The position numbers and the translations under genes are program-made. Below are positions 55,813 to 60,148 of a stretch of DNA of 64,000 bases, in pieces. The notes beneath the pieces are model-generated. The model searched no databases. It was not told the origin of the DNA and saw nothing but the letters and a program-made list of their open reading frames with translations. This DNA comes from Octopus vulgaris (lineage: Eukaryota), in the NCBI GenBank assembly GCA_951406725.2, contig OX597828.1, positions 59,024,001-59,088,000 of the forward strand, read 5' to 3'. Numbering within the stretch: the first letter of the stretch is position 1; every line of letters starts with the position of its first letter.

Positions 55813-56162
55813 ATAAAATAAATATAAGAGAGTGGTCACTATATTGATCACTCTAGCACCAGTTAATCCAAAAGGTTTCAACCACGAAAAATACATGTTT
55901 CCCATGAAAGCCAGTACGACTGTTAGCTCACATATATATATATATGTATATATATATATGTATATATATATATGTATATATATATATGTATATATGTATA
56001 TATGTATATATATATATGTATATATATATATAGATATATGTATATATATATGTATATATATATAGATATATGTATATATATATGTAGATATATGCATACA
56101 TATATGTATATATATATATAGATATATGTATATATATATATAGATATATGTATATATATAGA

Positions 56163-56200
<38 letters not shown>

Positions 56201-56292
56201 TATATGTATATATATAGATATATGTATAGATATATATATAGATATATGTATATATATAGATATATATAGATATATGGATATATATGTAGTTG

Positions 56293-56342
<50 letters not shown>

Positions 56343-56358
56343 TATATGTATATATAGA

Positions 56359-56520
<162 letters not shown>

Positions 56521-56680
56521 TATATGTATATATAGATATATGTATATATATGTATATAGATATATGTATATATATGTATATAGATATATGTATATATATG
56601 TATATAGATATATGTATATATATGTATATAGATATATGTATATATATGTATATAGATATATGTATATATATATGTATATA

Positions 56681-57327
56681 GCAATAATAATTCTCTAAAA
56701 GAGATATAGACAGTAACTGCTCGATAACATAAGGGACTAAAGCCATCTGAATATGGCTAGGGACAGGGCAGGGTGGTGGGGGTGTTACTGTTGCATTTAG
56801 CCCCAGGCGAACATCGACGTCACCAGAAAGGCTCGACACCGTCACGGTGTCCTTATCCTGCAAAGGGAGGTAATTCCCCGATGAAGCGGAAACCACACAC
56901 GGACCATGGTTTCAAGGTGTATTGCCTATCGTCGGCGTGTGGTAGGCTTCCGCTTCCTCGACGAACTCTCACTCTGCAGGATATTCATATATAGATTTTC
57001 AAGCAAAATACATTTGCTGATTTCGAAAATCTGTTCGAAAGCAATAATAATTCTCTAAAAGAGATATAGACAGTAACTGCTCGATAACATAAGGGACTAA
57101 AGCCATCTGAATATGGCTAGGGACAGGGCAGGGTGGTGGGGGTGTTACTGTTGCATTTAGCCCCAGGCGAACATCGACGTCACCAGAAAGGCTCGACACC
57201 GTCACGGTGTCCTTATCCTGCAAAGGGAGGTAATTCCCCGATGAAGCGGAAACCACACACGGACCATGGTTTCAAGGTGTATTGCCTATCGTTGGCGTGT
57301 GGTAGGCTTCCGCTTCCTCGACGAACT
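56681..57327 (-). mobile_element. Retrozyme-like partial tandem (360-bp period, 1.8 units) inside (TA)n
   Basis: 56681-56967 equals 57041-57327 with 1 mismatch; one hammerhead per unit; non-coding. Confidence 0.8.
56883..56956 (-). ncRNA. Type I hammerhead ribozyme motif with extended stem I (U4C variant)
   Basis: GAAGCGGAA..CACACG-CCGACGA-U-AGG(CAAUACA)CCU-U-GAAA-CCAUGG-UC-CGUGUG..UUCCGCUUC; second copy at 57243-57316 has CCAACGA. Confidence 0.72.
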
Positions 57328-57378
57328 AGATATATGTATATATATATGTATATAGATATATGTATATATATATATAGA

Positions 57379-57427
<49 letters not shown>

Positions 57428-57657
57428 AGATATATGTATATATATATAGATATATGTATATATATATATAGATATATGTATATATATATATAGATATATG
57501 TATATATATATATATAGATATATGTATATATATATATATAGATATATGTGTATATATATAGATACATGTATATATATATAGATATATGTATATATATATA
57601 TAGATATATGTATATATATATATATAGATATATGTATATATATATATATAGATATAA

Positions 57658-57704
<47 letters not shown>

Positions 57705-57975: not shown

Positions 57976-58071
57976 GATATATATATATATTGATAGAAAT
58001 GATAAGACAACAAAAGTATGACAGAGGAATTTATTTGTAAAAGTAATATGTGACAATTATTCGGTAGCTAC

Positions 58072-58132
58072 GATAAAACTCCGAGTTTCGGATGTCAGGC
58101 CGGAAACCCATGCCGCCATCTCTTCAGTTATC
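58072..58132 (-). ncRNA. Type I hammerhead motif within an inverted-repeat element (58035-58250)
   Basis: GAUAA-CUGAAGA-GAUG(22 nt)CAUC-C-GAAA-CUCGGAG-UU-UUAUC; same family as 54197-54390. Confidence 0.72.
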
Positions 58133-60148
58133 CGGCCATCGGAAAAAATGCTATGAAAATGACCATTAAGCAAAGTTTCTGCCCCGACATCCGAAACTCG
58201 GAGTTTTATCATGGCTACCGAATAATTGTCACATATTACTTTTGCAGACATATGTATATATATATATATGTGTGTGTGTATATATATGACAGACTTCTTT
58301 CAGTTTCCGTCTACCAAATCCACTCACATGGCTTTGGTCAGCTTGGGGTTATAGTAGAAGACATTCACCCAAGGTGCCACACAGTGGAACTGAACTCTGA
58401 ACCACGTAGTTGGGAAGCAAGCTTCTTACCACACAGCCATGCCTGCACCTATGAATATTTATTTTACTGTTTATTAAACGGCAATGAGAAACCTGTGCTG
58501 TGTTTAATTAATCATTTTCCGTTATAGTTTGCCATGTGTAATAAATCATAAAAGTGAAAATTCAGTCCGTGTATATGTGTATGTAAGTGATAGAGGGAAA
58601 GAGAGAGAGAGAGAGAGAGAGAAATAAGAAAGTGCCATAGATGACTTATACCAATTTACCGTTGCTGTGTTTTGGTGTTAGAGAAATGCAGTTGTAAAGC
58701 AAGTGTAGGTTGCTGTAAATACCTTGTACAGTTTCGCTGTACCATAGCATGAGAAAACAAGTTGTTTCTATTGTTGGCTAGATCTGATCAGGTTTGTTGA
58801 AGGAGGCCTTTTGCTATAGAACTACCTAACCAAGCAATGATTTGACAAGTGTTCTAGCTGTTCTTAACATGAGATTATCGTAATTTAAACAGGTGTTTGC
58901 TATTGCAAATACAGATCTGGCTGCCAGTTGATGTAGGCTGGGGTTTTATATTTATACATAATGCGTAGATCAGTTTGATTTCTTGTGATTTTTTTTTTAA
59001 GTAGCAGCAATTACATTACCGAGTGTAATAAATGAGTGAGGGTAAAGAGTTATTTTGCCATTAATTTATAGAGCAATAAGAAAATGGAGGGGATCAATAA
59101 GTGGTATTCATCAACTTTTAGACATTTTATTATTTATTATTAAAATATATAAACAAACTAATATTTTTATTGAAAGAACCAGGTTATTCATAATTATATA
59201 ATTCAAAACAACTTTAATAACTAAAGGTGTGGTTGTGGCTGTGTGGTACAAATTTTGCTTCCTAATCACATGATTCTGGGTTCAGTTCCACTGCATGGCA
59301 TCTTGGGGAATTGTTTTCTACTTGGGCTGACCAAAGCCTTGTGAATGAATTTGGTTGAACCAGAAAGAAGCTGATCGTATATGTGTGCCTTTGTGTTTGG
59401 GTTTGTCCCCCACCACTGCTTGACAGACAGTGTTAGTTTGTTTACATCCCCATACCCTAGCAGTTCGGCAAAAGAGACCAATAGAATATGTATCAATGTG
59501 CATCCGTGTTTGTTCTCCCCACCCCGCCCCACCTCTGCCTGATGACCAGTGCAGGTATGTTTTTGACCCTGTAACTTTACAATTTAGCAAAAGAGACCAA
59601 TAGAATAAGTGTGAGACCCCCTTCGGTCATGACTGACCATGGAATTGCACCTAGAAAGTTACCCTCCCAGGCACAAGTCCGGGCAATAGAATAAGTACAA
59701 GGCTTTAAAAAATGTACAAGTACTGGGCTTGATTCATTTGACTAAAAATTCAAGGTGGTACCCCAGCATGGCCACAGTCTAATGACTGAAACAGGTAAAT
59801 GATAATTTCAGCTTACGATCTGTAGCTGAGCTCTAAATGATTGTTTAAATGAATAAACAATGACTTACAGTCATGATAACAATAGTATTCAGTATTTACA
59901 TTGAAAACATACATCTGACTAAGTAAATGCAGCTCTGTACTTCCTGTGGACATTTAATACTTGCTCTTTTGCTTTCATCTTGATTGACCCTAACCTCTGT
60001 CAATGTCACCTTACTGTTTATCACATGATGCTGAGGCAAGGAGACAGTAACACGTGCACATCTATGTACTCACACACACACAAACATGATGGACTTTCTC
60101 AGTTTCTGTCTGTTTACCGAATCCACTTATATATATATATATATATAA

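Follow-up and report, generated by a model that had tools for sequence, protein, structure and literature searches.

The window analysed here is a 64,000-nt stretch of the Octopus vulgaris genome, in which the insertion of interest occupies 56681..57327 on the minus strand. A repeat search combined with an offset comparison gave a period of 360 bp and about 1.8 units within the insertion. The repeat search of the window returned two copies of 288 nt each, and the copies match at the 360-bp offset from 56680/81 to 56967 with C at 56933 versus T at 57293 as the sole difference, which recovers both the period and the single mismatch reported in the first-pass annotation. We numbered the unit u1-u360 on the hammerhead strand as the reverse complement of window positions 57040-56681 (u is 57041 minus the position in the first copy). 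In this numbering, the insertion is a single arm that is 5′-truncated at u74 and has its 3′ end at u360. A complete 360-nt unit, the 3′ copy in RNA sense (56681..57040, minus strand), is preceded by a partial upstream unit of 287 nt covering u74-u360 (57041..57327, minus strand), which would stem from a second pass of reverse transcription. Full-length 100% matches to the complete unit lie on contigs C10 and C4. The insertion sits between two (TA)n-type microsatellites, at 55932..56680 as the 3′-side target and at 57330..57700 as the 5′-side target, in agreement with the TA flanks seen at first reading. At 58020-58245, a MITE-like element with long terminal inverted repeats lies next to a TA tract.

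The unit has a G+C content of 168/360 and no long open reading frame (ORF). On the circularised unit, ORFs beginning with ATG reach at most 50 aa, which bears out the earlier statement that no credible ORF is present, and no ORF was found inside any array when the ORFs in the flanks of 20 loci were listed. Folding of the predicted 360-nt circle gave -120.4 kcal/mol as compared with -86.6±5.6 for 60 shuffles (z -6.0). The TATA-like sequence TATATA is found at 56988..56993 on the minus strand, preceding the extended helix I by about 25-30 nt, in a run that is AT-rich across all three sister families; an internal promoter at this position is a guess.

The hammerhead motif and its core variants

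The minus-strand type I hammerhead motif at 56883..56956 comprises a helix I of 6 bp plus 9 bp, the core CCGACGA (56935-56929), a U·U pair followed by a 3-bp helix II, GAAA (56913-56910), the helix III palindrome ACCAUGGU (56910-56903), and GUC. The secondary-structure elements of a type I hammerhead are present, namely helices I-III, C3-A9, G12-A14, A15.1-U16.1, H17, and the pair 3-8. The predicted cut in this downstream motif lies at 56902/56901 on the minus strand, corresponding to u139/u140 on the unit. The second motif (57243..57316, minus strand, predicted site 57262/57261) carries G5A at 57293 in a CpG context, and its core reads CCAACGA. The two-part helix I, the GUC, and both cut positions agree with the earlier prediction. 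Rfam gave no hammerhead match in the window, and this silence is uninformative because Rfam also gave no match to a sister motif with a canonical core.

We aligned 16 motifs and found 98.7% of the cells paired, a value that none of 500 shuffles reached, and the slid controls stayed at or below 55%. The pair 3-8 is CG in 10, UA in 3, and UG in 3 of these motifs, and the helix III palindrome is kept in differing sequences (CCATGG, CCTAGG, CTCGAG, and CCGG). These compensatory changes lend support to a conserved hammerhead fold, with the aligned motifs being related sequences that stand for few independent covariation events.

Among the 56 complete cores of the first 30 loci, 54 read CCGACGA, one reads CCGATGA, and one, the upstream copy in the window, reads CCAACGA. 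G5A is thus private to the window copy and most likely reflects decay after insertion, and the core of the motif at 57243..57316 is likely dead, as had been suspected of the mismatch. Because one of its two cores has G5A, the window locus is probably a poor source of the 360-nt monomer, contrary to the 360-nt release that the first-pass annotation expected from it. If the copies fold as a dimer, the site of the G5A partner could in principle still be cut by the intact core; a helix III palindrome is described as enabling dimeric cutting by animal type I motifs (PMC4209133).

The core had also been called atypical. CCGACGA and the U·U pair are indeed present, but both deviations are known as natural variants: U4C is described in a natural viroid variant with reduced in vitro activity, and U10.1·U11.1 is tolerated (PMC3088659), and the same U·U occurs in the axolotl Amex2 motif, which cleaves and does so better as a dimer (PMC7229834). 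We rejected a core-masking fold peculiar to CCGACGA, as the same rod fold was predicted for all 9 variants tested, weaker in two. Weak or mismatched cores have been amplified as well, with U3·G8 at 7/69 loci and C3·A8 in 8/20 units of a sister family at 76-87% identity, and such cores would count against strict selection for catalysis.

A dispersed family with two fixed 3′ ends

At least 167 matches to the unit, mostly 95-100% identical and located on many contigs, were obtained among the best 40 of 924 candidates, and a pattern on the flanks of the core had 1,454 exact genome-wide matches, compared with 0 for a control pattern. The copies form dispersed arrays of up to about 13 units, which are purely head-to-tail with no LTR-spacer-LTR layout. 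The core CCGACGA is the norm of the young subfamily. Further subfamilies at 84-98% identity have the cores CCGATGA, TTGACGA, TTGATGA, and TTGATAA, the older sister family at 76-87% identity has TTGACAA or CTGACAA, and another older sister family at about 60% identity has the canonical CTGATGA core (3,022 candidates). The insertion thus belongs, as proposed from the window, to a family that is young, dispersed, and tandem, carries a type I hammerhead, and is of the same kind as the animal non-LTR retrozymes. The annotation had further looked to genome-wide copies in circular permutation; many dispersed copies exist, but they are not permuted, their 3′ ends being fixed at two sites.

Animal non-LTR retrozymes as described by Cervera and de la Peña 2020 (PMC7229834), such as axolotl Rtz_353/HHR_Amex2 and the mussel 350-390 bp repeats, share with the 360-nt family a tandem arrangement of non-coding 150-450 bp units, a single type I hammerhead per unit, a GC content below 50%, good folding, and target-site duplications longer than 4 bp when present (11-13 bp here). 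HHR_Amex2 resembles the 360-nt motif also in having U·U at the helix II base, together with a 2-bp helix III with a tetraloop. In contrast to those elements as described there, the 360-nt family has U4C fixed in its youngest subfamily and targets (TA)n, and we found no description of two fixed 3′ ends with inverted arms in the accessible parts of that paper. Circles and cleavage are demonstrated in the known retrozymes (PMC7229834) and are predicted for the 360-nt family. The accessible open literature gave no account of the 360-nt family or of paired fixed ends in retrozymes, and we regard the family as a previously undescribed addition to the animal non-LTR retrozymes.

The anatomy of the insertions was scored at 69 non-redundant loci, a non-random sample picked by similarity and pattern. 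Two arms lie head to head at 52 of these loci, and 17 have a single arm. Four inverted loci were set aside, two that ran off the fetched stretch and two with a short inversion ending elsewhere, which left 48 scorable loci. At 47 of the 48, one arm ends near u317 and its partner near u360 (p 3.5e-13), and the remaining locus has u317 twice. The single arms end at u360 in 11 cases and at u317 in 6, so that all 17 end at either point. The two fixed 3′ ends are therefore 43 nt apart and away from the cleavage site. In the window they correspond to 56681 (u360) and 56724 (u317), the putative starts of reverse transcription, and the 43 nt between the family ends form a tail of the type known from Penelope-like elements (PLEs) at 56681..56723 on the minus strand. 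The same two 3′ ends recur in the sister family at 76-87% identity, with good conservation of the tail across the three families. By a crude test, 108/121 3′ ends abut TA. Ten loci were tested for target duplications: all four inverted loci with non-TA targets have duplications of 12-13 bp, and among the single-arm loci an 11-bp duplication was present at one and none at five others.

The 5′ ends are scattered over the unit, and 41/103 arms cross at least two cut sites, with a maximum of 11. We observed no enrichment of 5′ breakpoints at the cut site (2/103 arms against 1.7 expected; also 5 versus 5 hits). The lack of a 5′ pile-up excludes cleaved linear RNA as the main template and fits both a circle and an uncleaved multimer. 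Cleavage thus seems to have left no trace in the genomic copies.

Penelope-like elements as the probable mover

The fixed paired ends together with the inverted arms are the "tail plus inverted arm" signature of PLEs. PLEs are described as partial tandems with an inverted 5′-truncated copy, a tail of 30-40 bp that is often at one end only, and a bias for microsatellites (PMC8557442). For an anole PLE, the protein, a predicted dimer, is reported to nick and extend both strands, reverse transcription starts internally at two sites bounding the tail, and hammerhead mutants still insert in vitro, making cleavage unnecessary (PMC11167929). The described features of endonuclease-positive PLEs (the Neptune/Nematis linker type, PMC8557442) and of the anole Poseidon PAc (PMC11167929) shared with the 360-nt family are partial tandems, 5′ truncation, an inverted 5′ arm, an optional tail, microsatellite targets, a type I hammerhead, and two internal start sites. 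Unlike those elements, the 360-nt family has no ORF, a unit of 360 nt, as many as about 13 units in an insertion, a tail of 43 nt instead of 30-40 nt, and no sequence match to the sampled autonomous families. We consider mobilisation of the 360-nt family by PLEs highly probable, and in its insertions the family behaves like a non-autonomous PLE. The one-of-each pairing of the ends also constrains PLE insertion itself, because both starts seem to be used on one RNA, one for each target strand.

PLEs have been called strong candidate movers of animal retrozymes (PMC7229834). Xenopus retrozymes are related to PLE pseudo-LTRs, and the paper reporting them (bioRxiv 10.64898/2026.07.22.740005) argues that animal retrozymes are non-autonomous PLE derivatives. 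As far as its accessible text goes, the argument is based on co-occurrence and homology, mainly in vertebrates, with arrays made by local amplification, whereas our argument is based on insertion anatomy and has arrays made at insertion. The non-autonomous Chlamys PLEs such as MRC1 (PMC8557442) have in common with the 360-nt family the status of a non-coding passenger and multicopy head-to-tail insertions; they differ in that their 3′ ends resemble those of their partner, and canonical hammerheads are described as missing from most Chlamys elements.

In two PLE families of the genome, intact ORFs (781 and 775 aa) encode reverse transcriptase (RT) and a GIY-YIG endonuclease. Both have the RT, a CX2-5CxxC linker, and, at the C terminus, a GIY-YIG domain as in the Neptune/Nematis type, and both target (TA)n, with tails of 40 and about 30 nt versus 43 nt in the 360-nt family. 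They also have hammerhead-like motifs, one with the core TTGATAA and the other with CCGAAGA. In the first family, tail/no-tail pairing was found in 2/3 scorable inverted copies, and in the second, the inverted arm was tailed in 4/4 scorable loci from 20 chosen for a tail-less main arm. These two families are candidate partners of the 360-nt units. The survey of GIY-YIG sequences gave at least 148 matches among the best 150 of 6,136 candidates, and the partner may be among the unsampled ones. No DNA similarity of the unit to the sampled PLE 3′ regions or GIY-YIG loci was found (best z 3.3 among 22 comparisons). A 61% match beside one PLE was dismissed as a homology link, as it belongs to a separate older sister element.

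The PLE search returned several further observations. Hammerhead-like motifs with the core CCGAAGA are also located at L076:4290-4345 and L052:1725-1790, one of them in a very young PLE family with many near-100% copies (8,827 candidates), and U4C cores recur in unrelated elements of the genome. At L053:6160-6272, a PLE 3′ end has a minimal hammerhead-like motif with a U3-A8 core, and a 479-aa ORF upstream of it had no Pfam match. A GIY-YIG family at L080-L084 has a tandem duplication of about 290-330 bp right after the ORF, in which the pattern search detected no hammerhead motif.

Origin of the arrays and competing explanations

The arms of one locus differ on average by 0.88 sites, compared with 5.1 between loci (25 loci), and 76% of same-locus arm pairs have at most one difference as against 14.5% between loci. 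Variants private to a locus fill every unit, in 5/5 and 3/3 units over both arms at two loci and in 6/6 units of one arm at a third. The two arms of a locus have a single haplotype in common, which makes reverse transcription the likely stage at which the arrays arise, in keeping with the earlier suggestion that copying made more than one pass. Variants that fill the units on both sides of an inversion are not easily explained by crossover growth after insertion, but follow readily from a monomer bottleneck, of which a circle is one example. We consider a circular template for reverse transcription fairly probable. However, 5 of 13 long arrays are haplotype mosaics with multi-unit polymorphisms, mostly in blocks that switch mid-unit, and these require a further contribution from template switching, a mosaic tandem template, or gene conversion. 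The arrays L151 (G000:C14:72706200-72711100) and L153 have haplotype blocks that change mid-unit, suggesting template switching or gene conversion. We also considered a dimeric 720-nt circle and rejected it, since the 13 arrays show no clear alternation and one alternates at a single site. A>G changes account for 13/51 multi-unit variants and 5/57 singletons (Fisher p 0.036, with clustered singletons in three loci dropped); the comparison of A>G with T>C is not significant (p 0.12), and a footprint of A-to-I editing is a hint only.

Taken as a whole, the explanation that we somewhat favour has the window insertion as a copy, truncated at its 5′ end, from a young non-coding 360-nt hammerhead family. 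The RT-endonuclease of a co-resident PLE would likely have inserted it into (TA)n, and the RNA copied would probably have been a unit-length circle. What is observed is the family with its arrays, the pair of fixed 3′ ends with one of each per inverted locus as the rule, the targets, and the conserved fold. The steps would be as follows. Arrays would be transcribed, the hammerheads would cut, probably as dimers via the helix III palindrome, and the monomers would be ligated into circles. A PLE protein dimer would then bind one RNA at the conserved tail region and nick both target strands about 12 bp apart, with one cDNA primed at u360 and the other at u317. Each cDNA would cross the cut site as many as 11 times, with occasional switches of template. 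Afterwards the two cDNAs would be united head to head or, as at the window locus, one of the arms would be lost. There, the single arm would have been primed at u360 (56681), and one full unit plus 287 nt would have been copied up to the stop at u74. More tentatively, and as a possibility rather than an expectation, the PLE dimer might sit on a single 360-nt circle and start a cDNA from each target strand at sites 43 nt apart with nicks 12 bp apart, both cDNAs rolling round and sometimes hopping between circles; the weakened U4C core may even be favoured for sparing the circle from being cut again. If this is true, the genome records double rolling-circle reverse transcription. The mover of animal retrozymes and the origin of their arrays, by rolling-circle reverse transcription or by local amplification, are in debate, and the 360-nt family bears on both, with anatomical evidence at dozens of young loci and candidate partner ORFs intact in the same genome. 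With a 360-nt RNA, an intact protein, and (TA)n as the target, retrozyme movement would be directly testable in vitro.

The alternative that survives best keeps the PLE but replaces the circle by an uncleaved tandem transcript, or by jumps between linear RNAs, with a weak or dispensable hammerhead. It would account for the lack of a 5′ pile-up at the cut, for the amplified mismatched cores, and for the mosaic arrays, which one homogeneous circle cannot give. It would also suit the insertion by anole PLE hammerhead mutants (PMC11167929), the lower in vitro activity of U4C (PMC3088659), and the in vitro cleavage of only 1/9 Xenopus retrozyme dimers (bioRxiv 10.64898/2026.07.22.740005). However, private variants filling all units of both arms call for passage through a single monomer somewhere on the way, arrays attain about 13 units although 5′ truncation is routine, and the pair 3-8 and the palindrome covary. 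We therefore judge this alternative rather unlikely, although it deserves to be taken seriously.

Much less room is left for monomers or PLE ends inserted singly, with the arrays growing later by unequal crossover or slippage. Such later growth is a published model, proposed for retrozymes in the discussion of bioRxiv 10.64898/2026.07.22.740005, and the mosaic arrays could be the outcome of gene conversion. Yet two fixed ends bound the arrays in both inverted arms, private variants are shared across the inversion, and 95-100% identity leaves little time, making this explanation improbable. Still less probable is a SINE-like element mobilised by a LINE, the inversions being due to ordinary twin priming. 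LINEs also undergo 5′ truncation and inversion, and a short inversion that stops away from the fixed points is present at 2/52 inverted loci, but the second site of priming does not vary from u317, both arms may contain several units, and the unit has no poly(A) or simple-repeat tail. A single-copy local duplication or an assembly artefact, the counter-explanation named in the first-pass annotation, has nothing in its favour beyond the TA-rich setting and is a negligible prospect, given the 1,454 flank matches, the at least 167 unit matches among the best 40 of 924 candidates, the 20 public sequencing runs from 10 studies, and the 360-nt junction in contigs of 4/4 runs compared.

These 20 runs contain the window stretch or part of it, and no run is on record as RNA, a result that speaks neither for nor against expression. 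In two of the four compared runs, X1 and X7, whose RNA status is guessed, the unit appears as a 390-nt contig (360+30) with a 30-nt self-overlap and the CCGACGA core. Such a self-overlapping contig is expected from a circle or a uniform tandem alike, the junction is also present in X18 and in genomic tandems, and the contigs matched to the unit carry no information on strand, ends, or level.

Two other features of the loci were recorded. At L035:158-268, a palindromic element of about 110 nt in (TA)n has a near-perfect long helix I round a hammerhead-like CCGACGA motif, and its end sequence flanks several other loci (L016, L067, and L171). L171 and L172 (G000:C1, about 61 kb apart) contain the same insertion with the same flanks in inverted orientation, which suggests a segmental duplication or an assembly duplicate.
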